Shown here: piece by piece, positions 48,213 through 64,000 of the stretch
Layout: each line of letters starts with the position of its first letter
Position numbering within the stretch: position 1 is the stretch's first letter
Assembly: GCA_018830045.1 (NCBI GenBank)
Contig: JAHJTF010000020.1
Coordinates: 4,667-68,666 of the forward strand
Reading direction: 5' to 3'
DNA length: 64,000 nt
Origin: Patescibacteria group bacterium
Lineage (GTDB): Bacteria > Patescibacteriota > Microgenomatia > UBA1400 > PJMF01
Program-made: the position numbers and the translations under genes
The notes under the pieces: model-generated
The model's input: only the letters and a program-made list of their open reading frames with translations
What the model was told of the DNA's origin: nothing
Database searches by the model: none

Positions 48213-49970
48213 ATGATGAAAGTTCTGGGTATTTCTTGTTTTTATCATGACTCAGCCGCTTGTTTAACGTTGGATGGAAACATTATTGCTGCCGCTGCTG
48301 AAGAAAGGTTCAGTAGAAAAAAGCATGATAATGGTTTTCCAAAGTTAGCGATAGAATACTGTTTACAAACAGCTGGATTGGCAATTAATGAACTAGACGC
48401 CATTGCTTTTTATGAAAAGCCCATCTGGAAATTTGAAAGAATTTTGCACCAACACCTGGAACACTTTCCTAAAAGCTATCGGGCTTTTTTTGATACCACT
48501 GGCTCTTGGATCAACCAAAAATTAAACATTAAAAAAATTCTTCAAGAAACACTAAATTACTCTGGAGAAATTATTTTTTTACCCCATCATCTATCTCATG
48601 CGGCTAGTGCCTATTATTTATCGCCTTTTGATAAATCAGTCTTAGTCACTATTGACGGAGTAGGTGAATGGGCCACCACTACTATTGGTACAGCTAGTAA
48701 AGAGCAGCTCAAAATTGATCAAGAGATTCGTTTTCCTCACTCGCTAGGATTACTTTACAGCACCCTAACAGCTTACCTTGGATTTAAAGTCAATAACGAC
48801 GAATACAAAGTCATGGGATTAGCAGCTTATGGAAACCCAGATGAATACCAACCTGCTTTTGACAAATTAATCACTGTACATAAAGACGGTAGCTATGCTC
48901 TCGATATGTCTTACTTTGATTATGCTTGGGCTCAACGCATGCCGGCAAAAAAAATGGTGGCTTTGTTTGGTCACCCCATCAGAAAACCTGAAAGCAGAAT
49001 CTATCAGTACCATCAAAACATCGCAGCCACACTTCAAAACAAATTAGAAAAAGTGATTTTTAATTTACTCCAGGCAGCTCATAACAAATACCGCACTGAT
49101 AATCTCTGTCTATCGGGAGGTGTAGCTCTTAACTCTGTTATGAATGGTCGAATCCTGTCTCAAACATCATTTAAAAAAATCTTTATTCCTCCAGACCCGG
49201 GAGATGCCGGCGGAGCTATGGGGTCTGCTTTATATGTGACTTTAAACCCAGAGGTAATTCGAGGCTATGCAAACCGACATACAAAACACCTAAAAATCAA
49301 ACATAAAAAAATAGCTAAAAACTTCACTCCTTATTTAGGACCGGGTTATGCGTGGCATCAAATTGAATCAACTTTACAAAAAAATAAAAACCGTCTCAAA
49401 TACAAATATTTCTCTGATCAAGACAAATTATTAGATTTAATCTCTGACTTAATTATTAAGAAACATGTTATTGGTTGGTTCCAGGGTAGAATGGAGTGGG
49501 GTCCTAGAGCACTGGGAAATCGTAGTATCTTGGCTACTGCTACTGATCCTAAGATGAAAGATATTTTAAATGCTAAGGTTAAACATCGAGAAATGTTCCG
49601 TCCATTTGCTCCAGTGATATTAGAAGAATACGTTCCAAATTTTTTCAAGGCAGACCAGCCTTTGCCATCAATAAGTAAATATATGTTGATGGTTTATCCA
49701 TTTACAGAAAAAGGTAAAAAGGATATCTCGTCTGTAGTACATGTTGATAATACGGGCAGGTTGCAAAGCGTGAGTAGAAAAGATAACCCTCTTTATTATT
49801 CTCTAATTGAACGTTATTACCAAAAAACCGGCGTTCCAGTAATCATCAACACTTCTTTTAATATCCGCGGCGAACCAATTGTTTGCAGCCCTCAAGATGC
49901 GATCAATTGCTTTTTAGGAACTGACATTGATTATCTAGTAATCGACCAGTTTTTTGTCAGTAAAAAGTAA
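48213..49970 (+). CDS. Carbamoyltransferase (NodU/CmcH family)
   Basis: Start at MMKVLGISCFYHDSAACL…AAEERFSRKKHD…, the N-terminal signature of the NodU/CmcH family. The ORF extends to 48111. Confidence 0.65.
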   Translation: MMKVLGISCFYHDSAACLTLDGNIIAAAAEERFSRKKHDNGFPKLAIEYCLQTAGLAINELDAIAFYEKPIWKFERILHQHLEHFPKSYRAFFDTTGSWINQKLNIKKILQETLNYSGEIIFLPHHLSHAASAYYLSPFDKSVLVTIDGVGEWATTTIGTASKEQLKIDQEIRFPHSLGLLYSTLTAYLGFKVNNDEYKVMGLAAYGNPDEYQPAFDKLITVHKDGSYALDMSYFDYAWAQRMPAKKMVALFGHPIRKPESRIYQYHQNIAATLQNKLEKVIFNLLQAAHNKYRTDNLCLSGGVALNSVMNGRILSQTSFKKIFIPPDPGDAGGAMGSALYVTLNPEVIRGYANRHTKHLKIKHKKIAKNFTPYLGPGYAWHQIESTLQKNKNRLKYKYFSDQDKLLDLISDLIIKKHVIGWFQGRMEWGPRALGNRSILATATDPKMKDILNAKVKHREMFRPFAPVILEEYVPNFFKADQPLPSISKYMLMVYPFTEKGKKDISSVVHVDNTGRLQSVSRKDNPLYYSLIERYYQKTGVPVIINTSFNIRGEPIVCSPQDAINCFLGTDIDYLVIDQFFVSKK

Positions 49971-50131: not shown

Positions 50132-51115
50132 ATGAAACTAATTAAAAAAATTTTATTACCCGCTCTTATTTGTTTTTGTTCAATTATTTTAACGTACCGG
50201 GCGGCGTTTGCGATTGCAGAAAATTTCTTCTTTGACAAATTATTTTACAAAAAATCTGCAGTGTATGGTTATCAATCACATGATTCAAATCTGTTAAAGT
50301 ATCCAAATAACCAATTAATAGAAAAACGTATTACAGATTTACGACTTTTAACTAAAGCAGACTTAAATAAAGATCCACATGTGCTGGGAGTATCATCGGA
50401 AGATGATTATCGGATAGCAATTATCGGAGACTCATTTGTTTACGGCACTGGAGTGAAACAGGCTGAAAGGTTTCCTGAATTACTAGAAAAAAAACTCAAT
50501 AGCTATCGGAAAACTCAAGTTTTTGTTCTAGCTCAACCTGGCGATGGAATGCTGGAAAATTACGCGAAGTTTCTACTCGCCAAAGAAAATATTGATCCAG
50601 ATTTATTTATTATTGGTCTACTTCACAATGATTTATTAATTGATAATTCCAACAAATACCCTCGGCAACAAACCATCTATGAAAATTTAAAACAAGTTTG
50701 TCTTCAGCCAGAATTTAAATACTCATGGCCTAATTATCAGGCTTCTATCCAAGAGCTAATCGTCGACGGGTTTTATCCTTCATCTAAATCTGAGTACGCC
50801 AATATTTGCTATTTTGATAAAATTATAGTCGACATGACAAAGAATCCCGTACTTTTCTTTAGCTTCCACTCTAATCCCAGTAGCTATTTACCTGCTACTA
50901 ACGATGAGACTGAACAAAAATCAGACGCCATTGTGAAGCAATACAGCCAAATCATAAAAAATCACCAAGGAAAAATTGCTTACTTTGATGACCGCCTTCA
51001 ATATCAGCCAGTTTCTCACCTAGAAAATCATCCTTCAGTTAAAACCCACCAAGGTTACAGTGATTTACTAATGAAAGAAATTATTGAAAATCCACAATAT
51101 CATTTTTTACCATGA
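50132..51115 (+). CDS. Membrane-anchored SGNH/GDSL hydrolase-family protein, paralog 1
   Basis: N-terminal TM, shared FFDKLFYKKS box and a GDS block (IAIIGDSFVYGTGVKQA). Confidence 0.5.
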   Translation: MKLIKKILLPALICFCSIILTYRAAFAIAENFFFDKLFYKKSAVYGYQSHDSNLLKYPNNQLIEKRITDLRLLTKADLNKDPHVLGVSSEDDYRIAIIGDSFVYGTGVKQAERFPELLEKKLNSYRKTQVFVLAQPGDGMLENYAKFLLAKENIDPDLFIIGLLHNDLLIDNSNKYPRQQTIYENLKQVCLQPEFKYSWPNYQASIQELIVDGFYPSSKSEYANICYFDKIIVDMTKNPVLFFSFHSNPSSYLPATNDETEQKSDAIVKQYSQIIKNHQGKIAYFDDRLQYQPVSHLENHPSVKTHQGYSDLLMKEIIENPQYHFLP

Positions 51116-52107
51116 AAAAATTTCTGAAGTTTTTTTTGATTCTCACTACATTTTTGTTAAGCACCACAGCAACATACAAAATTGCTCACTTATTAAGCGA
51201 AAGGTGCTTTTTTGACAAACTGTATTACAAAAAATCACCAGAATATGGCTATTTTCTTCATAACACTAATCCTCTACTTAGTAAAAACAGTAAAATAATT
51301 GAGTCTAGAATTGCTGATCTTAAATTACTGACAGCAATAAACGAAAATAGTCACAATAATAGGATAAAAGGCATAACTAATAACGAGTCTTTTCAAATAG
51401 CAATCATCGGTGACTCATTTGTTTACGGCACTGGAGTGAAACAGGCTGATCGCTATGCTAATCGGCTAGAAAAATTACTTAATCAAATTAAACCAACAAA
51501 AATATATGTTCTTGCTCTTCCAGGAGATAACATTTTGGAACATTATACAAAATTTAAACTTGCCCAAGAAAATATCAAGCCTGATTTATATATTATCGGA
51601 ATTGCTAATAATGATTTATTAATTAATGATTTTATTTATCCTAATCAAGAATTTCTTTACCAAAAATCAAGAGAGGAATGCTTTCTGCCTGAATTTAAAT
51701 ATAATTGGCCAGATTATGCTATTACTATAGATCAGTTAATTTTAACTGCCTATTATCCAAGTTTTGATGATCAATATGCCAATATTTGCTATCTAAAAAA
51801 AATAATAAAAGAAATAGCAACAACAAACACCCTCTTTTTTAATTTTTATAAAATAGAAAATACTAATTCAACTCAAGACCTCAGTGAGGCTGAACAGAAA
51901 GATATTCAAATCATGAAAAAATACACCGAGATAATCCAACTGGCAGGAGGTCAAATTTTTCACCTCCATAACTCTCGGGTTTCAGGTGAGTATCAACCAG
52001 TCTCATTTTTGGAAGGACACCCATCAAAAGAAACGCATGAGTGGTTTGCAAAAGCCTTGTTTAATAGAATAATTATAAATAATAATTTAGGCTTTACCCA
52101 TGACTAA
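51112..52107 (+). CDS. Membrane-anchored SGNH/GDSL hydrolase-family protein, paralog 2
   Basis: Same architecture (FFDKLYYKKS; IAIIGDSFVYGTGVKQA). Its start overlaps the stop of paralog 1. Confidence 0.5.
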   Translation: MKKFLKFFLILTTFLLSTTATYKIAHLLSERCFFDKLYYKKSPEYGYFLHNTNPLLSKNSKIIESRIADLKLLTAINENSHNNRIKGITNNESFQIAIIGDSFVYGTGVKQADRYANRLEKLLNQIKPTKIYVLALPGDNILEHYTKFKLAQENIKPDLYIIGIANNDLLINDFIYPNQEFLYQKSREECFLPEFKYNWPDYAITIDQLILTAYYPSFDDQYANICYLKKIIKEIATTNTLFFNFYKIENTNSTQDLSEAEQKDIQIMKKYTEIIQLAGGQIFHLHNSRVSGEYQPVSFLEGHPSKETHEWFAKALFNRIIINNNLGFTHD

Positions 52108-53107
52108 ACTTTGGAAAATTGTCCTATTAATAAGTTTGGGGCTATTATCTGGATTACTGACCATAAAAATCAGTTATTTTTTAGCAGAAACTTATTTCTT
52201 TGACAAATTTTATTATTATAAAAGTATCGAGCATGGTTACTGGATTCCAGGACAAAAACTAACTTTAGAAAATTTTGGTGAAAGAGCTCTTGATCTGATT
52301 CAATTAGACAAAAACTTTCAAGCTACTAAAAACGGAGAGCGAATTTTAGAAATTAATGAGGATGAAGCATACACCATAGCTCTTATTGGAGATTCCTACG
52401 CTTGGGGGCAAGGAGTTAGATTTGAAGATACTATTTCTCAATTATTGGAAAAAAAGCTAAATCAATATAAAAAAACCACTGTGCTGTCATTGGGGTATTC
52501 TGGAGACTCAATTCTTGATTATTTTATAAGATATGATCAGCTGAGACAAACCTATCCGATAGATCTTTATATTTTTATGTTAGTTGAAAATGATTTATTA
52601 TTAGTTAAAGATTATGAAAAAAGGTATGAGCAGACATCGATATTCCATGATTGTCAAAGCCTCTTCCCTGAACAAAAACCTATCTACGACTTATCTAATA
52701 ATGATTATGAGCTAAGAATATTTAACGGTTCTGACATATTAGAAAAAGAATGGGCGGAAAGATTTGAGCAATCATGGTATTCAGAATTAAATTTATGCAT
52801 TTTAGACCAAAGTTTACAAGCCTTACCAACAGACAATGCCATTTTTTTTATCAGCTTATACCGTGATGAGGAAAATTCACAACCACAATGGAAAACTTAT
52901 AGAGAATACTTAAATAAAAACCAAAAAACAGTATTGCGCTCCGCCGATGCCAAAACGCTAGATGACTATAAACGTTTCTGGAAAAAACCCTCGAAATATT
53001 TTTCAGTTTCTCCAAAAGACTCCGGGCACCCTTCAAAAACTGCCCACCGCATGTTTGCTGATTTATTAGGTAGAGAAATTTTAACTAATCTTAAGTGGGG
53101 ATTTTGA
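52100..53107 (+). CDS. Membrane-anchored SGNH/GDSL hydrolase-family protein, paralog 3 (more divergent)
   Basis: FFDKFYYYKS; IALIGDSYAWGQGVRFE. Confidence 0.45.
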   Translation: MTKLWKIVLLISLGLLSGLLTIKISYFLAETYFFDKFYYYKSIEHGYWIPGQKLTLENFGERALDLIQLDKNFQATKNGERILEINEDEAYTIALIGDSYAWGQGVRFEDTISQLLEKKLNQYKKTTVLSLGYSGDSILDYFIRYDQLRQTYPIDLYIFMLVENDLLLVKDYEKRYEQTSIFHDCQSLFPEQKPIYDLSNNDYELRIFNGSDILEKEWAERFEQSWYSELNLCILDQSLQALPTDNAIFFISLYRDEENSQPQWKTYREYLNKNQKTVLRSADAKTLDDYKRFWKKPSKYFSVSPKDSGHPSKTAHRMFADLLGREILTNLKWGF

Positions 53108-54539
53108 CTTTTAATACTAAAAAGGAAGAATTATTGAGTAGCGTTTCTGCATTATCAAAGTAAAAATTTTTATATTCAGCTGAATCTTCTTTTTCTATAA
53201 TCATTAATCCGTTAGCTGGTAAAGTCTCAGCAGAGAGAAAGTCAACTGATTGTTCCTCAATATAGGTCAAGATACCAGTATAAAACCTTAGGGTAAAAAA
53301 CTGGTGTAGTGGTTCTGTTTTTCTAGCATAGTAATTGATTTCCAGTTCATCACCACATTTTTGATCAGTGCACAAATCAACCAGCTCATTAAAATTTCTA
53401 ATCCTCTCAGTTGGGAAAAAACTACCATATCTAAGTCTATTTGCTGTTTCAAGCAGATAATAAGTGTGTGTAATAGTTATCATAACTACGCCAATCACAA
53501 AAAGAATTAAAAACCAGTTATCTTTTTTTAAAAAGCGATTATGGATTAAAACTATTATTTTCTTTAAACCGACTATTAAATAGGCAACAACAAAAGGTAG
53601 AATAATTAATAAGTAGCGACGAGCAAACCATTCTAAAATAGCAGCAAAAGATTGATAAACCAAAGCAAAAAATATGATGATTGAAATAATAAATCCAACT
53701 GAAGACTTATCTTTCTTATTAGTTAAAGTAACTAAAAAACCAACTAAAGAAAATAATAAAACAGGAATCGAAAATAATTCTACTAATGCTCGCCACCAAT
53801 TAAGAATTGAATAATTAAAATTTAAGTAGGCATGAGAGAAATTTTCTAAGGAGCTATTTCTCATATTGGTTAAAAACAACAGAAAGTCATTTGATGAATA
53901 GTAATTTATTGCCAACCACAAAAAAGGCACGATAATTAAAACTAAAATCAATACTCGCTTTATTCTAGAAGATTGAGCTGACTTATATACATACCACATG
54001 ATTAGGGGAGTTAAATACCAAGCCTCATACCTAATTCCTTGAGCTACCATAAAACTACCCACACCCCAAATGTAACGAGGTGAATCTTTTAAAATTAAAA
54101 TCAATGCTAATAAGAGAAAAAATACAAATACCTGCTCTGTAAAAGGAAAAGTACTAATTAAAAACCGATAAGGGAAAAACAGATAAATTAAGCCTGCTAA
54201 AACAGCTTCCCGAGAGTTTAAATCAAGTAATTCGCGGCAGTAGAAATAAACCAATACTACTGTGCCAGAACTAAAAAGAAGATTAACCACTCTGGGAGTT
54301 AGAGTAAAATCATCTAGAACGTGCAAAGCACCCCCCAGTAACAACGGATAAAGCGGCAGCCACAGGCCAGTGTATAGCGTATTGAGCGAGCCACTGTCTT
54401 TAAATGCTTTGGCAGTCAAAGAATGTATATAAGGATCTGTTTCGGTATACATTGGAGTCTTAAGCTGGGGTATAGCGACAATGGCTGAAAAAAGAAAAAG
54501 TAATAACGGGGTAACTAAATGGATTCGTTTTAAAATCAT
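53091..54539 (-). CDS. Polytopic membrane glycosyltransferase, GT39/GT83 (ArnT/PMT)-like
   Basis: 482 aa with more than 10 TM segments and an N-terminal loop containing an acidic motif (TETDPY). Called by family resemblance. Confidence 0.35.
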   Translation of the reverse strand: MILKRIHLVTPLLLFLFSAIVAIPQLKTPMYTETDPYIHSLTAKAFKDSGSLNTLYTGLWLPLYPLLLGGALHVLDDFTLTPRVVNLLFSSGTVVLVYFYCRELLDLNSREAVLAGLIYLFFPYRFLISTFPFTEQVFVFFLLLALILILKDSPRYIWGVGSFMVAQGIRYEAWYLTPLIMWYVYKSAQSSRIKRVLILVLIIVPFLWLAINYYSSNDFLLFLTNMRNSSLENFSHAYLNFNYSILNWWRALVELFSIPVLLFSLVGFLVTLTNKKDKSSVGFIISIIIFFALVYQSFAAILEWFARRYLLIILPFVVAYLIVGLKKIIVLIHNRFLKKDNWFLILFVIGVVMITITHTYYLLETANRLRYGSFFPTERIRNFNELVDLCTDQKCGDELEINYYARKTEPLHQFFTLRFYTGILTYIEEQSVDFLSAETLPANGLMIIEKEDSAEYKNFYFDNAETLLNNSSFLVLKVKIPT

Positions 54540-54544
54540 AATAA

Positions 54545-55024
54545 TTATTTTAGGTCATCTAAAAAACTTTTTAATTTCTTGACAATGCTTTGAGACTGCC
54601 CCCAAGTTATTTTCCCTGATTGATAAGACTGAACCTGATAAAATAGTTCTTTTTTATCTAAACACAGATATATTTTATTTTTTTTGGCTAATTCTTGAGC
54701 AAAATATAGTTGATGATCGCTAACATGTTCACCATATTTTTTAAGCCTAGGAATAACAATTGGTTTTTTTCCTGCCAAGAAGATGCTTTGATAAATCGTA
54801 GCTGGCCCGGCATGAGAAATCACTATTCTTGCTTTTCTTAATAAAGAAACGAACTCATTAAAATTATAGTTGGATTTTTGTACAGCGCCTGCGACTAAAA
54901 TAGTAGCAGTGCCAGATTGAATAATTACTTTTTCTTTAATTTTTTTTTGTTTAATAAGAGCATTTATTAAAAGTAACAATCTATCAAACGGCAAATGATG
55001 AGTCCCAACTGTCACAAAAATCAT
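54545..55024 (-). CDS. Alg13-like glycosyltransferase subunit (GT28 C-terminal domain, PssE-like)
   Basis: MIFVTVGTHHLPFDRL… N-terminus typical of Alg13/PssE. It is paired with the Alg14-like gene upstream. Confidence 0.6.
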   Translation of the reverse strand: MIFVTVGTHHLPFDRLLLLINALIKQKKIKEKVIIQSGTATILVAGAVQKSNYNFNEFVSLLRKARIVISHAGPATIYQSIFLAGKKPIVIPRLKKYGEHVSDHQLYFAQELAKKNKIYLCLDKKELFYQVQSYQSGKITWGQSQSIVKKLKSFLDDLK

Positions 55025-55470
55025 AGCGTACTCCCCCAGTATTTCGCTTTAGGGAAAAATCTTTGTTGTTGAACATTTTGAATCAAGAACAAATCGGCCA
55101 GAAGATAAACTAATCGACCGCTAAGCGATGGTTTATCAATAAAGTCTAAAGGCTCAATAAAAACCAAAGTCATACCGAAAAGTTTCCCAACTATAAAAAA
55201 AGGAGGAGCAATTCCTGCTCCCGCACTGATTAACACTTGCGGTTTTTCTTTCAGCAGGATCTTAAACGCCAACCATAAGTTATAAAAAAAATTAAGAATA
55301 TTCCGACTTTCAGGATAGTAGGCTAAGTATAGATTTTCACCTTCAAGAAGACTAATTGTGTCAGATTTATCAAAGCTAACCCAAAAATGGACTCTGTTTT
55401 CCCAACAAGACTTCAGTTGTAAAAGTTGAAATAAGTGACCCCCCGCTGACGTTACTAGCCCAATCTTCAT
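55021..55470 (-). CDS. Alg14-like glycosyltransferase membrane subunit (PssD-like)
   Basis: MKIGLVTSAGGHLFQLLQL… and the pairing with the Alg13-like gene downstream. Confidence 0.6.
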   Translation of the reverse strand: MKIGLVTSAGGHLFQLLQLKSCWENRVHFWVSFDKSDTISLLEGENLYLAYYPESRNILNFFYNLWLAFKILLKEKPQVLISAGAGIAPPFFIVGKLFGMTLVFIEPLDFIDKPSLSGRLVYLLADLFLIQNVQQQRFFPKAKYWGSTL

Positions 55471-56636
55471 GATTTAGATTGTAGTTTAAAAATTTCCCTA
55501 AGCCCATACCAAGGTTTGCCTGTCAGACGAAACCAAAGATATTTTTTAAACTCCCTAGGAATAGATCTCTCTACATCGCAACCGCTGTTGCAACCCAAAC
55601 ATGAACTTCCAAGCATCTTTTGCTTAAATTTTATGTTTTTATGATCAAATAAAATTTCACTCACGGTTTGATCAGAGCGACAATTTCCTATTTTACGTTC
55701 TGAAAAACAATAATAAACATCACCAAAACTATCCAAAGCAAACTGATCATATTGGAAAGGACAAGCGGTTGTTCTGGGTCGACCATCGCGATACATATGG
55801 AGTAAATCCTTCCAATAATAAGCTCGGAAATCTTTCCATGATTTAGGCTGACTCATCTCTTCCATAAATGATTCCAACTGTTTTTGTTCTTTTTTTCTAA
55901 AACTAACTTCCTTCTTTGTATCCAGATTATTAATATAAGTATCATGGAAGCCCACAATTTGAAATGTGCCATTTATTTGATTATCTTCATACCACTTTTT
56001 CATTTTGTTAATCTCAGGTAAATTCTGCCTCAGCACCAACGAGCCACTTCCTACCCAAAACCCATATTGTTTTGATAGTTTTTTTAATTGAAACAGAGTG
56101 GCGGTGGTTTTTTCAAAGGCATTGGGAATACGTCTAATTTTTTCATGCATCTTACCCACACCATCCAGAGAGATACTCACGCTTAGCTCAACATCATGCT
56201 TATTACAGATTTTGGCAATTTCTATCACTCGTTTGACAATTAATTCAGTCATAAAACCATGAGAAACCATTGTTAGTTTGCGCAACTTTGGCATAGAGCG
56301 AATTATCAACTCAGCCATTTGAGGTAATTGTGGATGGAGAGATACTTCTCCGCCCGTCAAGCCACAGCGTTCAATGTTGACAAACACTGGATCTTTAAAA
56401 ATCTTTTTCCAGTCCTCATATTTGAGTTCATCCTTGGGCTTCATTTTCCAAATATTACACATCACGCATCGGGAATTACAGTGATAAGTCAGTCCTATTA
56501 AAACCGCTTTTGGTGACAGTGGCCTAAAATTATGAATTACATTATAGCGATACATTCCTTGAATAATTCTACCGATTTTATAAAGCTTGCGACGAACTTT
56601 TAGCTGCATAGATGAAAACTTCTGATTTGAAATCAT
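55467..56636 (-). CDS. Radical SAM enzyme with C-terminal SPASM-like Cys cluster
   Basis: CNSRCVMC (CxxxCxxC) near the N-terminus, plus C-terminal cysteines (…ACPF…YYCFS…GNCRS…CLGCNSGC). Confidence 0.65.
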   Translation of the reverse strand: MISNQKFSSMQLKVRRKLYKIGRIIQGMYRYNVIHNFRPLSPKAVLIGLTYHCNSRCVMCNIWKMKPKDELKYEDWKKIFKDPVFVNIERCGLTGGEVSLHPQLPQMAELIIRSMPKLRKLTMVSHGFMTELIVKRVIEIAKICNKHDVELSVSISLDGVGKMHEKIRRIPNAFEKTTATLFQLKKLSKQYGFWVGSGSLVLRQNLPEINKMKKWYEDNQINGTFQIVGFHDTYINNLDTKKEVSFRKKEQKQLESFMEEMSQPKSWKDFRAYYWKDLLHMYRDGRPRTTACPFQYDQFALDSFGDVYYCFSERKIGNCRSDQTVSEILFDHKNIKFKQKMLGSSCLGCNSGCDVERSIPREFKKYLWFRLTGKPWYGLREIFKLQSKS

Positions 56637-56642
56637 ATTATC

Positions 56643-57743
56643 CTAATCTAGCAATACGCGTAACGTTTTATCAATTAAAGATTGGTTATGATACTTTAAG
56701 ACAGTTCGTCTTGCTTGCTGACCAACAGCTTGTCTTTTTTTATGATCTTGTAATAACAAGATAATTCTTTTTCCCATCGCCATGGCAGTCTGCTCGATAT
56801 AACTGTTTTTTCCATGTTCCAAGTACTCTTCCGCTCCCGGATAAGAGAGGGTTATCGGGACGACTTGTTGCGTCATGGCCTCCAGCAGTACTAAGGGATG
56901 CCCCTCAAAATCAGAGGTAAGGGTAAAAAGTTTTGCCCTGGATAACTCAGTAATTATTTTTTTAGTGGGAGGCTTGATGATTATATTATCTTTTAGACTG
57001 TGCTTCTTAATATAGTGACGAAGTTTCTTTTCTTCAGGACCTTCTCCAATTAAACAGAGCTTTATTTTAGGCAAAGTTAATTTGATTTGTTTGACTATTT
57101 CGAGAAGTTTAATCAACCTTTTTTGAGGGGCAAAACGGCCACAATAAATAAGATCATACTTTTTAGACTGTCGATATAACCGAGTGTCTTTTATCCAATT
57201 TTGGATAACCACTACCTTATTAGGATCTGTCTTGTAGTTTTTAACTAAGTCTTGTTTAGCATATTCAGTCTGAACGATGATTGTATCAACTAGCCGATAG
57301 CACCAACTAATAATTATGTTGGAGTGAGTTCTGATAGAATAAGGCAATTGATTTTCAAATGAGAGCACGTTGTCTTGGCTAACAACAACTTTAATTTTTT
57401 TCCAAAAAAATAAGTACTTCATCAGCACACAGTAGGCGGTCGCATGATGCAAAAATGGCACTAAAATTTTGGGGTTATATTCCAGGATCAAATAAATTAA
57501 AAAAATAATATAGCGAATTTTACGTTCTTTACTTGGAAAAACATTTTCAATATGCAACTGCCTAAAACCAGCTGGAAGATCTGATTCAAAACTAAAAGCC
57601 TCTGTCCGACGAACTACAATATGAGGAATAATATCATAGTAATTTTGATCGGCTTCTAAATGGTAAACTAAATCAATTATTTTGCGCTGAATACCACCCA
57701 ACCCTAAATGAAAAAAAAGGAAAAAAACATGTCTATCCTGCAT
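56643..57743 (-). CDS. Glycosyltransferase family 4 (GT-B) protein
   Basis: CGRFAPQKRL…LIGEGPE…FEGHPLVLLEAM (the E-x7-E region). Confidence 0.7.
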   Translation of the reverse strand: MQDRHVFFLFFHLGLGGIQRKIIDLVYHLEADQNYYDIIPHIVVRRTEAFSFESDLPAGFRQLHIENVFPSKERKIRYIIFLIYLILEYNPKILVPFLHHATAYCVLMKYLFFWKKIKVVVSQDNVLSFENQLPYSIRTHSNIIISWCYRLVDTIIVQTEYAKQDLVKNYKTDPNKVVVIQNWIKDTRLYRQSKKYDLIYCGRFAPQKRLIKLLEIVKQIKLTLPKIKLCLIGEGPEEKKLRHYIKKHSLKDNIIIKPPTKKIITELSRAKLFTLTSDFEGHPLVLLEAMTQQVVPITLSYPGAEEYLEHGKNSYIEQTAMAMGKRIILLLQDHKKRQAVGQQARRTVLKYHNQSLIDKTLRVLLD

Positions 57744-57756
57744 ACTTAAATTTTTT

Positions 57757-58602
57757 TTACTCTGTGTAATTGATCGTCGATGACATCACCGAACCATCCC
57801 TGACATAGGTTTGACCAGAATCAGCCCAAAACGCTTCGCCAATCATAAAAGTCTGATAATGATTATAGTAACAAAGCTTGTCAACACAGAGTACATCGGG
57901 TAGTTCAAAAGTCGCTGTAATGTCTTTTTTAATTGGATCCCAGCGCAACAGCACATCTCCCCGATCATTGACCACTACTTTTTCAGCAGGAGTAATTTTA
58001 ACTTCTTTTGTTTTGAGGATAATTTCTCCCTTGCTGTTAGTGACTACAAAATTTTTGATTGCTTCCGCATGCCAAGGATCATAATCGCGATAGTGGACTT
58101 TGATCTCTGCATTAGCTCGCCGATAATCGGCGAAACGCTGTTCAGGATTTTTGTAAACATTAACCACTATACCAGTGAATGAGGTGTCATTAAATTTAAG
58201 GTTAAGTTCTTCACCTACTAAAAGAGGATTGCCGTCATACACGTAAGTTCTAGTAGTGGTATTATAAACTGCATCTAGTTTGACTACCATCTCGACGTAT
58301 AACCGTCTCCCTCCGTCCCAAACATTTTTTTCAATCTCTTGAATTTCAACTACTTTCTTGCCTACTGAATTGTAGCCCACATCGCCTACCCGAAGTTTAT
58401 TTACCTCCCAATATTCTGGAGGAAAAGAGTTTACGTTCCAATCCTGCCGTTGAAAAGTTAAGTCTATATAGATAAAGACTCTCTGCCTACGAAAGTAAAA
58501 AAGCAAAAATCCTACAATTAAAATACCGAATAAAATTAGAACCAAATCAATCAGAGTAATTTTTTTTAGGAGAGATTTTTTTAAATTTTTAAGATTGAGC
58601 AT
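57757..58602 (-). CDS. Hypothetical membrane-anchored protein
   Basis: 281 aa with an N-terminal TM. No recognisable motifs. Confidence 0.3.
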   Translation of the reverse strand: MLNLKNLKKSLLKKITLIDLVLILFGILIVGFLLFYFRRQRVFIYIDLTFQRQDWNVNSFPPEYWEVNKLRVGDVGYNSVGKKVVEIQEIEKNVWDGGRRLYVEMVVKLDAVYNTTTRTYVYDGNPLLVGEELNLKFNDTSFTGIVVNVYKNPEQRFADYRRANAEIKVHYRDYDPWHAEAIKNFVVTNSKGEIILKTKEVKITPAEKVVVNDRGDVLLRWDPIKKDITATFELPDVLCVDKLCYYNHYQTFMIGEAFWADSGQTYVRDGSVMSSTINYTE

Positions 58603-60049
58603 AAGCTATTCCTAAGAGCAACCACACAATACCACTAATTGGAATTGTTAACCACCAAGGATAAAACTGACTAACTAATAAATAACCCAAACACCCTAAA
58701 ATCAGTCCTTTTATAAGAATATTTTTTCCACTCACCAGCCAGCTGTATCCTTGGACTATTATTCTATATATAAATCTAATAAACAATAACAAACCCCCAA
58801 TTCCCAAAGCCGCTCCTACTTGAGCAAACAAATTATGAGCAGGAGTTGAATCATATAAATAAAATTCTGGTTTCCATTGATCTAAAATCTTATATTGATA
58901 CACATTAAGACCTAGACCCAAAGGCCTGGTAGCCATAAAGTGAGCAGCCATTTGTAAATGTCGCAAGCGATAAATTGCCCCGCCATCCTCTCTAAAAACT
59001 TGAGTCAGACTCATCAATCTATCTAGAATCATGGGTGCCAAGAAAATAATTAATAAACCTAAAATTATCCAGCCATATTTTTTTAACCAAACTGGCAACT
59101 GTACTTTGTTTTTCTTAATAATCAGTTGGTAGCTCACCAGAATCAACATCGCCCCGATCACCCAAGCTGCTCTACTGGCCGTTAAAATTAAGGCTAAACT
59201 ACCCACAACAAAACAGCTCATCATAAAACCCCGATGAAACCAAACTTTTTTGAAACTAAAAATAAACCACGATGGTAAGAACATGATCAAAATTGAAGAA
59301 GTCAAATTTGCATCCCAAAATATTCCTCCTGGTCTATATAAACTAGGAGATTCGTCGGCAAAACGACCAGCATATCCAGTATATTTTTCTTCAATTGCCA
59401 AACCAATGGGGCCACCATTGATTTTCTGTGCTACCACTAAACTAGCTAAAAACAAACCATAAATAAAAATTATTTCTAGTGTTTTTTTAGCCAAAGATTT
59501 GTCTTTAACTAAAGCCATAGCCAGAAATCCCATGGCAAACAACTTGGTTAATTGTAGTAACCAAAACCAAGATACTTCTGGTAATGGTGAGAGCAAAGAT
59601 GAAACTACCCCTAATGTTATAATTAGTAGCAGTGGCAAATAGGGAAAGGCATGAGGAATCTTAAAAGGCTTGCTGCCAGTCTTGAATCTACTTCTTACTA
59701 ATAAATAAAGTAATAAGATTAGTAACGCATCAGCAAAGGCTACAAAAAAAATAAGCTCGGGTTGCTTTAAGCCAAGTGCCGAATAATTGTCTGGAGCGAT
59801 GTAGGGTTTAATAAAGTATTTAGACTGTCTTAACAGATAAATACCAATAAAACCTAGCCACACTGAGTTTATTAATTCTTTATTTAAAAAATATATCACA
59901 ACAACTAATAACACCATCGCCAACAAGTAGGGTCGCAAAGTACCGATGTTCATTGATAATAAAATAAAAACAACATATACCCAAGACTCAGGTTCTAAAA
60001 TTCTTAAAAAAGATAAAAAAGAATTAGTAATTTTATGAAACATATGCAA
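58589..60049 (-). CDS. O-antigen ligase/polymerase-family membrane protein
   Basis: Polytopic membrane protein with a Wzy_C-like LTASRAAWVIGAMLIL loop. Confidence 0.5.
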   Translation of the reverse strand: MHMFHKITNSFLSFLRILEPESWVYVVFILLSMNIGTLRPYLLAMVLLVVVIYFLNKELINSVWLGFIGIYLLRQSKYFIKPYIAPDNYSALGLKQPELIFFVAFADALLILLLYLLVRSRFKTGSKPFKIPHAFPYLPLLLIITLGVVSSLLSPLPEVSWFWLLQLTKLFAMGFLAMALVKDKSLAKKTLEIIFIYGLFLASLVVAQKINGGPIGLAIEEKYTGYAGRFADESPSLYRPGGIFWDANLTSSILIMFLPSWFIFSFKKVWFHRGFMMSCFVVGSLALILTASRAAWVIGAMLILVSYQLIIKKNKVQLPVWLKKYGWIILGLLIIFLAPMILDRLMSLTQVFREDGGAIYRLRHLQMAAHFMATRPLGLGLNVYQYKILDQWKPEFYLYDSTPAHNLFAQVGAALGIGGLLLFIRFIYRIIVQGYSWLVSGKNILIKGLILGCLGYLLVSQFYPWWLTIPISGIVWLLLGIAYAQS

Positions 60050-60787
60050 AAGAAAAGCTTTTATTTTTATGAAAGATGGCTCAACTCCTTAGGTTTATTC
60101 GATATTCTTAAAAAAATAATTGATGCAAAATGGATCAAACATTCACATTATAAATCTGATTTGTATAAATACTCAACTAGTCAATTTTTGATCCGACATT
60201 TCTTTGGCTACAATGGACACCAAGTTAATCACAATACAGGTAACTTGGGTTTCGGTTTCCTTCATTATGCTTTTATTATTGCCTCAAGGCCAGAGAGAAT
60301 TTTGTGTATTGGTTCTGAGCAAGGATTTATTCCTGCTATTTGCGCCCTAGCTTGCAAAGACAACAATAAGGGACATGTTGATTTTGTTGATGCGGGCAAA
60401 ACTAGCAAAAATAAAAATCATTGGGGTGGAACTGGATTCTGGAAAAAAAATAATCCCCAACTACACTTTTCAGTTCTAGAACTAGAAAATTGGATTACTC
60501 CTTATATCATGACTTCAAAGCAATTTGCAAAAAAATATCAATATAAATATGAGTATATTTTTATTGATGGAGACCATAGTTACCCCGGAGTAAAATTCGA
60601 TTATGAAACTTTCTGGCCCCGGTTGGCAACTGACGGAATGATGGGATTTCATGATATTAGTCTTAAGGGTCTTAATGGTCAAGATGAGTATGGCGTCTGG
60701 AAAATGTGGAAAGAATTAAATAAAAAACACAAACTATCCTTTGAGTATCTGGATAACAGTGTTGGATTCATCCAAAAAAACGAGTAA
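60035..60787 (+). CDS. Class I SAM-dependent methyltransferase (Methyltransf_24/CmcI-like)
   Basis: IFIDGDHSYPGVKFDYETFW. Confidence 0.45.
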   Translation: MKHMQKKSFYFYERWLNSLGLFDILKKIIDAKWIKHSHYKSDLYKYSTSQFLIRHFFGYNGHQVNHNTGNLGFGFLHYAFIIASRPERILCIGSEQGFIPAICALACKDNNKGHVDFVDAGKTSKNKNHWGGTGFWKKNNPQLHFSVLELENWITPYIMTSKQFAKKYQYKYEYIFIDGDHSYPGVKFDYETFWPRLATDGMMGFHDISLKGLNGQDEYGVWKMWKELNKKHKLSFEYLDNSVGFIQKNE

Positions 60788-60791
60788 GTAA

Positions 60792-62174
60792 CTAAACCCG
60801 TCGATAGTATCGATCTAAAACAAAGCGCAATAACCCACTTCTAACACCAAGCTTACCGGGAAACACTCCTCTTAATTTAAGTAAAAAAAATAACCAGTTT
60901 TTTTCTACTTTAATGATAAACTGTTTTTTAATCTTTTTTCTCAGTTTTTCAATATCTTTCCAGGTTTTACTTTGCAATTGGTAATAAAAGTACATTGGAG
61001 GGATACCCATAACTGGAGCAGTAAACTTTTCTAAATCTACATACGAAAGTAATGTAAAACCAGGAATTTTAACCCTGCTAGTATCTTGAGCTTGAGTAAT
61101 TAACCCAACTTGATCGGTATAAACAGCCTCAATTAACATACAGCCCGAAGGATGAATCTGTTTTTTTATAAGTTTTTTCCCTAGCAATAAATCAATAAAT
61201 AAGCTAGCTAAGTCTACATGATAAATTTCTTGATAGGTATCCAAAATCTTACCACCCGGAAGTCGGGCCGCTGCCTCCAATAAGATTGGGCCATTGGTGG
61301 TAAGTTTCATCTCGATGTGAAAACCGCAGTTGTCAAAACCCAAGGCTTTCATCACTTCAAAAGCTGCTTGCTTACACTTTTTTTTAACTATGGGGGAAAA
61401 TCTGGCTGGAATAAAAGTGGCGTTTTGTAATAAGTAAGGTCCCGAAGTAGCTTCGTACTCCGCAATGGTAGAAAAAATTATTTTTCCATTCTGAATCAAT
61501 CCATCACAACTAAAAACAGTTCCCTCAATATACTCCTCAAGTAAAAAATGTGATTTGGACGATTGATAGTACTTCATCCACTCATCAAAATTAGCATTTA
61601 GTTGTTTTCTGGCTAGAGTGTATTTTTCAATAAAATCATCTTTTAGTTGTTGTCTCGTCTTCCCTTCCACTTTCATCACTCCATAACTATGACCAGAGCG
61701 AACGGCTTTAATCACTACCGGTGATTTAAATTTTTTTAATGTCCACAGACCTTCACTGAGATTGTCAAAAAGAGCAAACTGAGGAGTTGGGATTCCATGC
61801 TGTTTGCAACAAAGCCTCATCAAAAACTTATTAGCAGAACTTCTCCTGGCTGCATCTGCACTTAAAAATATTTTACCAAGCGCCTCTGCCAAATCTGCGG
61901 TTTGAACGATATTCATTTCAAAAAAAGTTAAAACTGCATCAAACTCAATCTGGTGATTTTTCATATACTTAGCAACGTCACTAATCAGAACATCAGAATC
62001 ATAAGTATTAGTCATAATTACATTTGATGCCGGCACATAAGACTTTATCCACTCTGGATAATTAGCAAAAGTCGCCAAATAAATTGATAAACCTTTCTTA
62101 GCAGCCGCCTTGAAGGTATACTCCTTGTCAGGAGTGCCCCAGTTCACATAAAGAATATTGTGTGTTTTTGACAT
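60792..62174 (-). CDS. ATP-grasp domain protein (carboxylate-amine ligase type)
   Basis: VVIKAVRSGHSYGV…LLEEYIEGTVFSCDG…, ATP-grasp fold motifs. Confidence 0.5.
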   Translation of the reverse strand: MSKTHNILYVNWGTPDKEYTFKAAAKKGLSIYLATFANYPEWIKSYVPASNVIMTNTYDSDVLISDVAKYMKNHQIEFDAVLTFFEMNIVQTADLAEALGKIFLSADAARRSSANKFLMRLCCKQHGIPTPQFALFDNLSEGLWTLKKFKSPVVIKAVRSGHSYGVMKVEGKTRQQLKDDFIEKYTLARKQLNANFDEWMKYYQSSKSHFLLEEYIEGTVFSCDGLIQNGKIIFSTIAEYEATSGPYLLQNATFIPARFSPIVKKKCKQAAFEVMKALGFDNCGFHIEMKLTTNGPILLEAAARLPGGKILDTYQEIYHVDLASLFIDLLLGKKLIKKQIHPSGCMLIEAVYTDQVGLITQAQDTSRVKIPGFTLLSYVDLEKFTAPVMGIPPMYFYYQLQSKTWKDIEKLRKKIKKQFIIKVEKNWLFFLLKLRGVFPGKLGVRSGLLRFVLDRYYRRV

Positions 62175-62180
62175 TTTATA

Positions 62181-63353: not shown

Positions 63354-64000
63354 ACTGGCGGCTAAAAATTTGTGATTATCATCAGCTGTTATTTCCTCAA
63401 CATCACAGCTATATACTATTTGAGGGAGATTCAATTTACCAACACTTAAGTGTAAAATACCAACCTCAAATTAATTTTTTAGGCATGTTTTCCAACGATA
63501 AGTTTATGGCTGGCTGTAACACTAAAACCAAACTTCCTTGGAACTCACCGTTTTTTTTAGTGGACTTTTATCTTAAGCAACCCAAAAAGTTTTTATTTTT
63601 AGGAGGGGGACCTTGTTGTGCTCCAACAGCTCTGTGGAAAAGAGACAACGACCGCTCCATATCAATTGATATTGTGGAGCAAGATCCATTAGTTCTAGAA
63701 CTTGCTGCTAAATTTTTTAATCTTCCTAAAGATCGCCGGATTAACATTCATCATACTCAAGCTCAGCAATTTCTTATTCAAAATAAAAAAAAGTATGATG
63801 CTATTTTTTTCGATTTGGGCTTTACTTATGAGCGCAGAAATGACAAAAAATATAGTTTTTGTGCTCAAAAATTCACTCTCAAGCAACTCAAGAAAGCCCT
63901 TACTCCTCAAGGAATAATCATCTACGTAGTAATTGCTCGTCGGCAATGTCATCAAAAACAATTTTTATGTGAGTTGTATCAACAGTTTAAAAAATTTTTT
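63350..64000 (+). CDS. Partial CDS (runs off window end): spermidine-synthase-like / class I methyltransferase-fold protein
   Basis: ATG at 63350 overlaps the upstream stop (ATGA). YDAIFFDLG is an aminopropyltransferase-like motif. No stop occurs before 64000. Confidence 0.3.
   Translation, partial: MNWRLKICDYHQLLFPQHHSYILFEGDSIYQHLSVKYQPQINFLGMFSNDKFMAGCNTKTKLPWNSPFFLVDFYLKQPKKFLFLGGGPCCAPTALWKRDNDRSISIDIVEQDPLVLELAAKFFNLPKDRRINIHHTQAQQFLIQNKKKYDAIFFDLGFTYERRNDKKYSFCAQKFTLKQLKKALTPQGIIIYVVIARRQCHQKQFLCELYQQFKKFF

Follow-up and report, generated by a model that had tools for sequence, protein, structure and literature searches.

The nearest solved relative, by profile, of the radical SAM enzyme analyzed in this study is SkfB (PDB 6EFN; 62.7 bits), a twitch radical SAM enzyme and the thioether synthase of the sporulation killing factor. 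It recognises peptides through an N-terminal domain, and a precursor peptide gene accompanies it in a bacteriocin operon. The twitch dehydrogenases and epimerases of aminoglycoside biosynthesis (BtrN, SpeY) show a moderate likeness in structure and sequence. HygY and NeoN are further twitch-type enzymes of aminoglycoside pathways, in which a cysteine serves as hydrogen donor. To our knowledge, sugar-acting radical SAM enzymes have been described almost solely from antibiotic pathways, and we know of no radical step in bacterial surface-polysaccharide assembly as it is usually described. Another solved relative is BlsE (PDB 7VOB; 40.2 bits by profile), which acts on cytosylglucuronate in blasticidin S biosynthesis. 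It carries a CxxxCxMC motif, and only one [4Fe-4S] cluster has been described for it (PMC3715490). Its substrate is a nucleoside antibiotic intermediate in Streptomyces, without any polysaccharide locus.

Radical SAM genes have been annotated in surface-glycan loci as well. A 36-kb plasmid of Brachyspira hyodysenteriae carries them among surface-glycan genes and links them to colonisation and virulence (PMC4267127). The HS:19 clusters of Campylobacter jejuni also contain radical SAM genes (PMC8743553). Both reports concern annotation and not enzymology. In these loci, the radical SAM genes lie scattered among genes for group-1 glycosyltransferases and sugar nucleotides, much like the setting described below. 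The Brachyspira plasmid genes were considered as homologues and set aside, as a tblastn search against a plasmid collection (E 1e-8) gave no match to a Brachyspira plasmid.

Here we analyze a stretch of 64,000 nucleotides from a Patescibacteria group bacterium (hereafter the window). It encodes a radical SAM enzyme that we consider, with a probability of roughly 0.6, to be a cytoplasmic protein with one auxiliary twitch-type Fe-S cluster and a dedicated tailoring enzyme of a surface-glycan assembly line.

The gene is located on the minus strand (55467..56636), starts with an ATG preceded by AGGA 4 nt upstream, and encodes 389 aa. The Pfam Radical_SAM domain (PF04055) is found over aa 49-205 (E 3.6e-11; 43.9 bits, cut-off 29.5). 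The sequence C53-N-S-R-C57-V-M59-C60 (codons 56457..56480, minus strand) represents the [4Fe-4S] motif in the unusual CxxxCxMC form. All 36 aligned homologues keep C57 and C60, 35 of them also C53, and 127 of 134 unbiased representatives of the clade have a methionine before the third cysteine. The SAM-binding motif G95-G96-E97 (56346..56354, minus strand) is invariant in all 36 homologues and, in a larger set, in 84 of 84. The protein thus combines the CxxxCxxC motif of the radical SAM superfamily with the GGE motif and the partial (beta/alpha)6 barrel, and its AF2 model is confident (pLDDT 93.2). A word-indexed search returned 168 homologues at E<=1e-3, and 1,195 representatives of 50%-identity clusters are found at E<=1e-30; the gene is therefore real. 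At E<=1e-10, relatives number roughly 8,000. The initial annotation of a radical SAM protein at this position is accurate down to the exact ORF and strand. Judged by its motifs, the ORF encodes a radical SAM protein with a SAM-cleaving cluster motif, which is predicted to cleave SAM reductively into a 5'-deoxyadenosyl radical as is usual for the superfamily.

The N-terminus forms a cationic amphipathic helix in the AF2 model (aa 4-32; codons 56541..56627, minus strand), with a hydrophobic moment of 0.74, the maximum of the protein, and a net charge of +9 over aa 1-40. A cationic N-terminus is present in 36 of 36 family members (median +5.5), and both termini are cationic and aromatic-rich throughout these members. 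This composition is compatible with work at a membrane surface, but the basic termini could merely mirror a Lys-rich proteome.

Full SPASM domains contain seven to eight conserved cysteines and two auxiliary [4Fe-4S] clusters, while twitch domains contain three to four conserved cysteines C-terminal to the barrel and one auxiliary cluster (PMC9477430). The auxiliary region of the window enzyme reads C292-x12-G305-x4-C310 ... C346-x2-C349-x3-C353 (55578..55763, minus strand). All five cysteines are invariant among the 36 family homologues; the wider clade keeps C292, C310, C346, and C349, while C353 varies. The Pfam SPASM profile (PF13186) scores marginally under its cut-off (21.4 bits against 21.5, aa 292-350). 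The initial annotation had described a SPASM-type enzyme with a C-terminal auxiliary cysteine cluster. This cluster is present, but the SPASM label does not hold in the full sense, as there are five cysteines in the family and four in the clade rather than seven to eight. The four clade-wide cysteines C-terminal to the barrel agree with the twitch definition, and the structural matches include the twitch enzymes SkfB, MoaA, and BtrN. The NCBIfam model N_Twi_rSAM gives only 31.7 bits against a cut-off of 170, which places the enzyme outside that particular subfamily. The auxiliary domain is thus predicted to be a truncated, twitch-like SPASM domain and, given four to five conserved cysteines, to hold one extra Fe-S cluster.

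We searched NCBIfam with the window enzyme and ten representatives of distant subfamilies and found no curated family near its cut-off. The generic best match is TIGR03961 (PTO1314), with 45-86 bits against 306. The initial annotation had named assignment to a housekeeping radical SAM family as the outcome that would speak against it; neither a housekeeping nor a peptide-maturase family in NCBIfam claims the enzyme. With the model of the SkfB family (TIGR04403), whose cut-off is 300 bits, it scores 31.3. In the BlsE family (TIGR04466), it reaches 25.6 bits against 400 and is thus a non-member, so that the CxxxCxMC motif common to BlsE and the clade represents resemblance and not membership. 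The four to five auxiliary cysteines kept in the family also differ from the single [4Fe-4S] cluster described for BlsE.

Among the solved relatives, peptide-modifying SkfB outscores BlsE, which counts against a sugar substrate. The enzyme might be a peptide or protein maturase like SkfB or an anSME, which would form a thioether, carry out an oxidation of the formylglycine type or epimerise a residue in a ribosomal envelope product, for instance a protein that is later glycosylated by Wzy_C/PglL-like or PMT_2-like enzymes. We regard this as unlikely. RiPP maturases of the SkfB, AlbA, and PqqE type are defined by an RRE/PqqD-like domain or partner together with a precursor gene, and the window enzyme falls outside this definition. 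It has no Pfam match to an RRE or PqqD domain, nothing but a helix of about 40 aa lies ahead of the core, and its alignment with SkfB starts past the RRE of the latter. The AlbA model, like that of SkfB, remains far under its cut-off (46.7 bits against 850), and a PqqD gene is not conserved. The anSME family (TIGR03942) is not among the best 25 NCBIfam matches, and the locus contains no sulfatase gene. Around the radical SAM gene and within its operon, we found no free small ORF of precursor size outside the coding sequence and no room for a peptide gene, in agreement with the earlier remark that no obvious precursor-peptide ORF lies nearby. Where relatives are fused to other domains (see below), the partners in the proteins examined are pyruvyl- or glycosyltransferases and never peptide-processing domains. 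The genetic context also differs, with glycan assembly instead of a bacteriocin operon.

The radical SAM gene belongs to an operon of seven genes on the minus strand, whose junctions range from -14 to +13 nt. The first gene (58589..60049) encodes a polytopic Wzy_C-domain protein of the O-antigen polymerase/ligase type (Pfam Wzy_C, 1.5e-14), followed by a DUF4330-like protein that is anchored in the membrane at its N-terminus (57757..58602; 27.6 bits, at the cut-off) and a GT4 glycosyltransferase (56643..57743; Glycos_transf_1, 1.6e-31), 6 nt upstream of the radical SAM start codon. Downstream follow an Alg14-like, PssD-family glycosyltransferase subunit (55021..55470; Pfam Alg14, 2.1e-11), whose ATG overlaps the radical SAM stop codon (ATGA), and an Alg13-like, PssE-type subunit (54545..55024; Glyco_tran_28_C, 1.8e-16). 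Both pass their Pfam cut-offs. Their closest NCBIfam families are PssD/PssE (Cps14F/G), of which PssD is over its cut-off (116 bits against 110) and PssE under it (87.7 against 120). The radical SAM gene is translationally coupled to the GT4 gene on one side and to the PssD/PssE-like pair on the other. Its position between glycosyltransferases, proposed before, is thus backed by Pfam on both sides.

The last operon gene (53091..54539) encodes a polytopic membrane protein of 482 aa with eight predicted TM segments and a weak DUF2079 match (19.7 bits, under the cut-off), possibly a GT-C-type glycosyltransferase. Similar positions in four related loci (L014, L088, L089, L090) hold PMT_2 or YfhO membrane proteins. 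An iterative HMM search seeded with the 482-aa protein returned only its own orthologues, and when TM counting was combined with Pfam, no more than about 6 of 20 close loci showed a GT-C-like neighbour. A strict partnership between the radical SAM enzyme and a GT-C protein is therefore unsupported. The same count argues against an enzyme that modifies a lipid, such as the polyprenyl chain or a glycolipid anchor, in the manner of GDGT-MAS or HpnH. Likeness to such lipid-acting enzymes in structure and sequence is weaker than to SkfB, BlsE, anSME, and MoaA, and the fusion partners of relatives are soluble sugar or pyruvyl transferases. We consider a lipid substrate improbable, even more so than a peptide.

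The surrounding genes extend the glycan locus. Its proposed start is a Bac_transf initiating phosphoglycosyl transferase (44654..45262, plus strand; 2.3e-47), which is also found in loci L006, L007, L090, and L091. It is followed by a second, large Wzy_C-domain protein of 910 aa (45266..47998, minus strand; 1.5e-14), a carbamoyltransferase of the NodU/CmcH type (48111..49970, plus strand; Carbam_trans_N 9.7e-87, Carbam_trans_C 3.7e-70), and three SGNH/GDSL-like paralogues in tandem, each with an anchor at its N-terminus (50132..53107, plus strand; Lipase_GDSL_2, Lipase_GDSL). The carbamoyltransferase, which has a 60% identical orthologue in L004, is likely a glycan O-carbamoylation enzyme. On the other side of the operon, we found a class I methyltransferase (Methyltransf_24; 60035..60787, plus strand; 1.1e-15), an ATP-grasp ligase (60792-62174, minus strand; ATP-grasp_4, 4.1e-18), a PLP-dependent decarboxylase (62181-63353, plus strand; Pyridoxal_deC, 9.3e-10) with histidine decarboxylase as top NCBIfam match (104 bits, under the cut-off), and a spermidine/spermine-synthase-like gene (63350..64000, plus strand; Spermine_synth, 6e-8), which is truncated by the window end and complete in L001. 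No nucleotide-sugar gene in the window points to a specific sugar. Rfam and tRNA scans of the whole window gave a single tRNA-Met (1374-1448) and nothing else.

The ATP-grasp ligase and the decarboxylase (60792..63353) form a putative amine-substituent module. The radical SAM enzyme could therefore be the maker of a small-molecule substituent (an amine, amino-acid or 7-deazapurine-like unit) that is subsequently attached to the glycan, with the Methyltransf_24, decarboxylase, ATP-grasp, and spermidine-synthase-like genes as partners and no chemistry on the sugar ring. These last three genes adjoin the window operon, the Methyltransf_24 and decarboxylase genes recur 1-5 kb from the radical SAM gene in Patescibacteria, and QueC-like, PTPS, and GTP cyclohydrolase I genes accompany them in related loci. 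In those loci, however, a second and different radical SAM paralogue lies inside the module, while the orthologue of the window enzyme is found with GT4 and Wzy_C. The amine module is wholly absent from the Chloroflexota orthologue loci and from the fused relatives, and the window gene is translationally coupled to glycosyltransferases and not to amine genes. We judge this explanation about as unlikely as that of a peptide maturase.

Orthologues with 36-80% identity occur in Patescibacteria and Chloroflexota and share the Wzy_C / DUF4330-like / GT4 / radical SAM neighbourhood. The glycan neighbourhood is still seen at about 36-40% identity; among orthologues that are 36-66% identical, GT4 is adjacent and Wzy_C lies at most 3 kb away, the latter in at least 11 close loci. 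In L004 and L005, a GT4 orthologue (47-51% identical) is found directly upstream of the radical SAM gene. Recurrent neighbours in these orthologue loci are DUF4330-like, Methyltransf_24, WecG, and Bac_transf genes, with DUF4330-like homologues adjoining the radical SAM gene in L006, L007, L011, L016, L018, and L089 and Methyltransf_24 orthologues (41-50% identical) near it in L004-L008 and L011. Wzy_C, Wzz, NAD-epimerase/dehydratase, and flippase genes recur in the loci of the wider clade. Of 84 related loci, 70 have a GT4 gene at a distance of at most 7 kb, a raw count for a very common family. We should note that the genome scan picked its loci by sequence patterns, so that this sample is biased. 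The conserved partners are GT4 and Wzy_C, to which Patescibacteria add the DUF4330-like protein and the Methyltransf_24 gene. Co-occurrence with the Alg13/14-like pair, suggested as a check in the initial annotation, does not extend across genomes. The pair adjoins the radical SAM gene only in the window type and in L089 and is separated from it by 5-8 kb in L009, L017, and L088; it was therefore rejected as a conserved partner.

Several more distant clade members are fused to glycan enzymes. Fusions of a radical SAM domain with a polysaccharide pyruvyl transferase, about 750 aa in size, make up 26 of the top 150 clade representatives and are located in Wzx/Wzy loci. One of them (P0162) is 27% identical to the window enzyme over aa 12-388 (E 1e-49). 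Two GT2-radical SAM fusions (L040, L046) and a radical SAM-GT4 fusion of Ruminococcus flavefaciens (L083) were found as well. These fusion proteins fall into other subfamilies, whose putative active-site residues are not those of the window enzyme (e.g., R-T-x-I versus Q-x-x-G-F-H) and whose chemistry may differ as well. In the literature searched, covering few subscription journals, neither the pyruvyl-transferase fusions nor this radical SAM family are described. A GT4-radical SAM fusion with 37% identity (P0183) was examined as a ‘Rosetta stone’ and is a weak one, being a singleton on a 2.2-kb contig with relatives that have two separate genes; its GT4 part is not orthologous to the GT4 of the window.

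EPS loci of cultured rumen and gut bacteria also hold relatives. In Pseudobutyrivibrio xylanivorans pNP95, a separate radical SAM gene directly precedes pyruvyl-transferase genes, and in Segatella copri the radical SAM gene is flanked by two glycosyltransferase genes. Cultured carriers include S. copri DSM 18205 (plasmid NZ_CP085934, 41730-42941), P. xylanivorans MA3014 (pNP95, 18358-19530), and R. flavefaciens SAb67, the last with the fused form.

That a housekeeping enzyme for cofactor, tRNA or rRNA modification lies in a glycan locus by chance is close to refuted. The remainder of the window is indeed occupied by housekeeping genes, and there are weak matches to the MoaA, NirJ/Ahb, and PqqE models. 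Each of these models is, however, about ten-fold under its cut-off, and the translational coupling to glycosyltransferases, the glycan synteny across phyla, and the fusion of relatives to glycan enzymes all argue against coincidence. The neighbourhood conserved to about 36-40% identity and the fusions of relatives to glycan-decorating transferases support the more cautious suggestion of the initial annotation that the enzyme may tailor the glycan. This link to the glycan is drawn from gene context, by guilt by association. From the same context, we infer a sugar as substrate, the site of action, and an outcome by oxidation, epimerisation or deoxygenation.

A glycan-tailoring enzyme of this kind would operate within a polyprenyl-phosphate-linked assembly line initiated by Bac_transf and containing the Wzy_C proteins. 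The CxxxCxMC cluster would cleave SAM reductively, and the resulting 5'-deoxyadenosyl radical would take a ring C-H hydrogen from a sugar, which is either the activated precursor used by the neighbouring transferase or, at the inner face of the membrane, a residue of the lipid-linked oligosaccharide. The sugar radical could then be oxidised via the auxiliary cluster to a keto-sugar, lose the neighbouring OH to give a deoxy-keto sugar, or become an epimer by taking up a hydrogen atom on its opposite face. The donor in the latter case might be the family-specific fifth cysteine (C353), by analogy with HygY and NeoN. Finally, the adjacent GT4, the PssD/E-like pair, and the membrane transferase would build on or transfer the modified sugar. 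A uronic acid as substrate would fit the likeness to BlsE, the glucuronosyltransferases among some PssDE/WelK relatives, and the amide ligase of the ATP-grasp type. Neither the window ORFs examined nor the annotated related loci contain a UDP-glucose dehydrogenase, and we regard this substrate as no more than conceivable.

More tentatively, and with the odds against it, the clade might perform its radical chemistry directly on glycan intermediates that are held in the membrane by polyprenyl phosphate; this would represent the first radical SAM step in Wzy-type assembly. If so, anaerobes would possess an oxygen- and NAD-independent route to epimerise, oxidise or deoxygenate a carrier-loaded sugar. 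Subfamilies would be wired, or even fused, to the transferase that handles the modified residue (GT4, GT2, pyruvyl transferase), and Patescibacteria, Chloroflexota, and bacteria of rumen and gut would be expected to carry undescribed sugars in their envelopes. Glycan intermediates as substrate would give enzymologists a new reaction to define, along with a naming rule for thousands of genes annotated as ‘radical SAM protein’; the existence of cultured carriers makes the question directly testable.

Compared with known systems, we consider the family a new, family-level variant among the twitch/SPASM radical SAM enzymes that act on sugars. Enzymes of the BtrN/SpeY type take soluble antibiotic intermediates, whereas the window family is found in Wzy_C/GT4 surface-glycan loci. 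If its members do act on carrier-linked intermediates, they would be functional analogues of DprE1/DprE2, which act on decaprenyl-phospho-ribose before GT-C transfer.

The open reading frame at 55467-56636 (minus strand), located exactly by the initial annotation, starts with ATG and encodes a radical SAM protein (rSAM) of 389 aa, with AGGA four bases 5' of the start codon. One database copy (P0001) is annotated nine codons shorter (380 aa), while the longer start is kept in the alignment with P0002, a homolog of 80% identity. Pfam detects a Radical_SAM domain (E-value 3.6e-11, 43.9 bits vs. a cut-off of 29.5) and scores SPASM at 21.4 bits, barely below the cut-off of 21.5. Across an alignment of 36 family members with 37-80% identity to rSAM, C57, C60, G95-G96-E97 and the C-terminal C292, C310, C346, C349, and C353 are invariant; C53 is found in 35 members. 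The C-terminal motif, C292-x12-G305-x4-C310 ... C346-x2-C349-x3-C353, begins as the canonical SPASM motif does and has a shortened second half. SPASM domains carry seven or eight Cys and two clusters, twitch domains three or four Cys and one cluster (PMC9477430). In an unbiased set of 137 representatives of the clade, which also comprises distant subfamilies, C292, C310, C346, and C349 are near-universal and C353 is restricted to the subfamily of rSAM and a few others. Twitch-like is thus the most fitting name for the auxiliary domain: it is predicted to bind one auxiliary cluster, and one family-specific Cys is left over. The earlier designation as radical SAM/SPASM-type thus holds for the CxxxCxxC motif and the C-terminal Cys set but not for the auxiliary domain itself. 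A Met precedes the third cluster Cys in 127 of 134 unbiased clade representatives; it is also invariant in 84 genome-scan loci, by construction, since the search pattern included it. In several subfamilies C292 and C310 are replaced by S, N or D (loci L025, L027, L028, L032, L033, L040, L043-L049 and others). These subfamilies, many of them from Uhrbacteria, Magasanikbacteria, and Parcubacteria, still lie inside glycan loci and have presumably lost the second cluster.

The rSAM gene belongs to an operon of seven minus-strand genes (60049 to 53091), encoding a Wzy_C protein (486 aa), a DUF4330-like anchored protein, a GT4 glycosyltransferase (56643-57743), rSAM, an Alg14-like protein (55021-55470), an Alg13-like protein (54545-55024), and a membrane protein with eight TM segments that weakly matches DUF2079 (GT-C-like). 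Pfam confirms the flanking glycosyltransferases as initially described. NCBIfam groups the pair with the PssD/PssE (Cps14F/G) families, scoring 116 bits for the Alg14-like protein (PssD, cut-off 110) and 87.7 bits for the Alg13-like protein (PssE, cut-off 120), which has a Glyco_tran_28_C domain. The successive junctions measure -14, +13, +6, -4, -4, and +5 nt, with the rSAM stop and the next start overlapping as ATGA; rSAM is co-translated with glycosyltransferases.

The surrounding glycan locus begins with a Bac_transf initiating transferase (44654-45262) and further encodes a second Wzy_C protein (910 aa), a carbamoyltransferase, Methyltransf_24, an ATP-grasp ligase, a PLP decarboxylase, and a spermidine-synthase-like protein whose gene is cut by the window end. 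The identical contig L001 reaches further and adds ABC transporter and GT2 genes. The locus also contains three tandem, overlapping SGNH/GDSL-like paralogs (50132-53107, plus strand; 327, 331, and 335 aa), all N-terminally anchored, suggesting that a glycan O-acyl esterase or transferase was duplicated more than once. Coinciding with the glycan locus, a stretch at ~46000-64000 has a G+C content of 0.31-0.36 vs. 0.38-0.44 (about 0.40) in the remainder of the window, which encodes housekeeping functions (GroEL, TsaD, LepA, MurJ, class II RNR). Within the latter, a single open reading frame at 4709-5878 (plus strand) encodes two fused t6A-pathway proteins, with Sua5/YciO/YrdC (TsaC) and TsaE domains. 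The start codons of the divergent Wzy_C (minus) and Methyltransf_24 (plus) genes abut or overlap as called (60035-60049), so that no room for promoters remains between the two genes; the start calls could be wrong, or the promoters could be located within the genes themselves.

The adjacency of GT4 and rSAM is maintained in orthologs of 36-66% identity, and the upstream GT4 of the related loci L004 and L005 is 47-51% identical to that of the window. The Wzy_C/DUF4330-like/GT4/rSAM block recurs in L018 and L089 and is rearranged in L006, L007, L011, and L016. In Chloroflexota the gene order is Wzy_C-GT4-rSAM-PMT (L088) or PMT_2-rSAM (L090). Co-occurrence with the Alg13/14 pair, proposed as a check, proved limited: the window type and L089 are the only ones in which the pair directly follows rSAM, and in L009, L017, and L088 the two are separated by 5-8 kb. 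WecG and Bac_transf are frequent in ortholog loci, and about six of 20 close loci encode GT-C-like polytopic proteins (PMT_2, YfhO, DUF2079-like). We clustered all open reading frames within 7 kb of rSAM in 84 non-redundant loci retrieved by sequence patterns. The GT4 cluster is present in 70 of them, a raw count for a common family, and other recurrent neighbors are Wzy_C, Wzz, NAD-dependent epimerases/dehydratases, GHL15/FG-GAP proteins, B12-rSAMs, and Wzx-type flippases.

Methyltransf_24 (41-50% identity) is again found in L004-L008 and L011. Its presence together with the decarboxylase in the locus suggests that rSAM might help to make an amine or deazapurine-like substituent. In Patescibacteria loci this pair is accompanied by QueC-like, PTPS, and GTP cyclohydrolase I genes and a distant rSAM paralog (L004 1-1644; L005 4062-4994; L006 1-3664; L007 2851-3924), a module beside glycan genes that resembles 7-deazapurine-type pathways. 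These additional genes are absent from the window. Against such a role, the rSAM within the module of related loci is a different, 22%-identical paralog, and the Chloroflexota orthologs lack the module.

The clade is bound genomically, and in part physically, to glycan-decorating transferases. Among the top 150 clade representatives, 26 exceed 650 aa, and all seven long representatives scanned with Pfam consist of an N-terminal rSAM and a polysaccharide pyruvyl transferase domain (PF04230). This fusion class is numerous (~750 aa) and includes P0162, P0175, P0184, P0194, P0232, and P0234, as well as P0333/P0347, which come from another search and were assigned by their precomputed domains. P0162 aligns with aa 12-388 of rSAM (27% identity, E-value 1e-49), a region that spans the N-terminal helix and all four auxiliary Cys conserved across the clade. 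Two such fusions (L091 3942-6335, L092 3678-5996) are encoded in Wzx/Wzy loci alongside GT4, WecG, Wzy_C, and Bac_transf. N-terminal GT2 fusions were found in MAGs of Falkowbacteria (L040) and Gammaproteobacteria (L046), and a C-terminal GT4 fusion in Ruminococcus flavefaciens SAb67 (L083). The fused relatives belong to other subfamilies than that of the window; an apparent GT4-rSAM fusion near the family (P0183) was discounted as a singleton on a short contig. In Pseudobutyrivibrio xylanivorans pNP95 (L093 8968-12427), a free-standing rSAM is followed by a pyruvyl transferase (split into two open reading frames) and an FrhB-like gene (‘coenzyme F420 hydrogenase/dehydrogenase beta subunit’-like), flanked by GT4 and O-antigen-ligase-family genes. 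This trio may link FrhB-like Fe-S flavoproteins, often located beside pyruvyl transferases, to a radical enzyme. A plasmid of Segatella copri DSM 18205 encodes a relative between two glycosyltransferase genes.

A word-indexed search returned 168 relatives, the named ones from Microgenomates, Shapirobacteria, other Patescibacteria, Anaerolineae, and one ‘Methanoperedens’ MAG. An exhaustive profile search yielded 32,225, 8,021, and 1,195 cluster representatives at E-values of ≤1e-3, ≤1e-10, and ≤1e-30, respectively. Among 589 relatives retrieved by sequence patterns in a genome scan, the full family signature (Q226-x-x-G-F-H231, W275-x-D277, and five auxiliary Cys) is carried by Patescibacteria, Chloroflexota, and a few MAGs labeled Gammaproteobacteria. 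More distant subfamilies (25-32% identity), some without auxiliary Cys, are spread across many phyla. The Patescibacteria-type locus (Wzy_C, DUF4330-like, GT4, rSAM) also occurs on contigs labeled Candidatus Methanoperedens (L007/L015, DATMWB010000014.1) and Pseudomonadales (L018, CAYMSV010000002.1), which could reflect mis-binning or lateral transfer.

No curated NCBIfam model reaches its cut-off on rSAM, the best scores being 46.7 bits for AlbA (cut-off 850), 45.1 for PTO1314 (306), 41.4 for HxsC (268), 31.3 for SkfB (300), and 25.6 for BlsE (400). No curated model claims ten representatives from remoter subfamilies either, and RefSeq labels cultured relatives just ‘radical SAM protein.’ The HMM classification thus gave no assignment to a housekeeping family, and a housekeeping role is effectively excluded. 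No full text among those searched describes the family, the rSAM/pyruvyl transferase fusions, or a Wzy-type assembly pathway with a radical SAM step; most subscription journals fall outside this coverage, so that prior work may exist. Unexplained rSAM genes have been reported in glycan loci of Brachyspira hyodysenteriae, where they are virulence-associated (PMC4267127), and Campylobacter jejuni HS:19 (PMC8743553).

The AlphaFold2 model of rSAM is confident (mean pLDDT 93.2, pTM 0.90) and displays a long helix at the N-terminus (aa 4-32), six beta/alpha units, and a hairpin plus helices at the C-terminus. Its structural matches score 21.8 (SkfB), 21.5 (BlsE, 282 residues aligned), 19.6 (anSME, ChlB, and MoaA), 19.5 (SuiB), 19.2 (viperin), and 14.3 (BtrN), with SpeY also among them. 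Against PDB sequences, the family profile yields E-values of 2.4e-16 (SkfB), 1.8e-9 (BlsE), and 1.4e-7 (MoaA). The resemblance to SkfB and AlbA is the one point in favor of rSAM being a peptide or protein maturase. This reading is disfavored, as rSAM lacks an RRE and both a precursor gene and a peptide-type fusion partner are absent. In agreement with the initial annotation, neither the operon nor its flanks contain an open reading frame of 20-90 aa situated largely outside the coding regions. The sole notable small open reading frame in the locus (49985-50128, plus strand; 47 aa, one TM) directly follows the carbamoyltransferase gene, and L004 has a 47-aa DUF5989 gene at the matching position; it is likely a small membrane partner of the carbamoyltransferase and not a RiPP precursor.

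Residues S156, D158, H164, R168, and R288 are conserved clade-wide and present in the SkfB and BlsE alignments, and are likely to serve SAM or a shared substrate moiety. Positions Q226, G229, F230, H231, W275, and D277 vary among subfamilies; they follow strands beta-4 and beta-6 and fall within the bridging helix, where a specificity pocket would be expected. Each of the 36 family members has two cationic termini (median +5.5 and +6), about six aromatics occur in the last 45 residues, and the N-terminal helix has the largest hydrophobic moment in rSAM. These features would fit work at a membrane surface, a weak indication in a Lys-rich proteome.

Judged from its genomic context, rSAM most likely acts on a sugar in glycan assembly; action on a lipid substrate is possible but less supported. 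The 5'-deoxyadenosyl radical would take a C-H hydrogen from a sugar, either a residue on a polyprenyl-diphosphate-linked intermediate or an activated donor, and the sugar radical would be resolved by the auxiliary cluster or a Cys. HygY and NeoN are twitch enzymes acting on sugars, and BlsE has dehydratase activity. Because of the analogy with characterized sugar-acting twitch enzymes (BtrN, SpeY, HygY, NeoN), oxidation to a keto-sugar, epimerization, or 1,2-diol dehydration would be expected, with BlsE-type decarboxylation (PMC3715490) as a further possibility. The clade shares with BlsE the motif CxxxCxMC, called atypical by the discoverers of that enzyme (PMC3715490). rSAM appears to represent the sugar-acting twitch/SPASM type of radical SAM enzyme, here recruited to surface-polysaccharide assembly.
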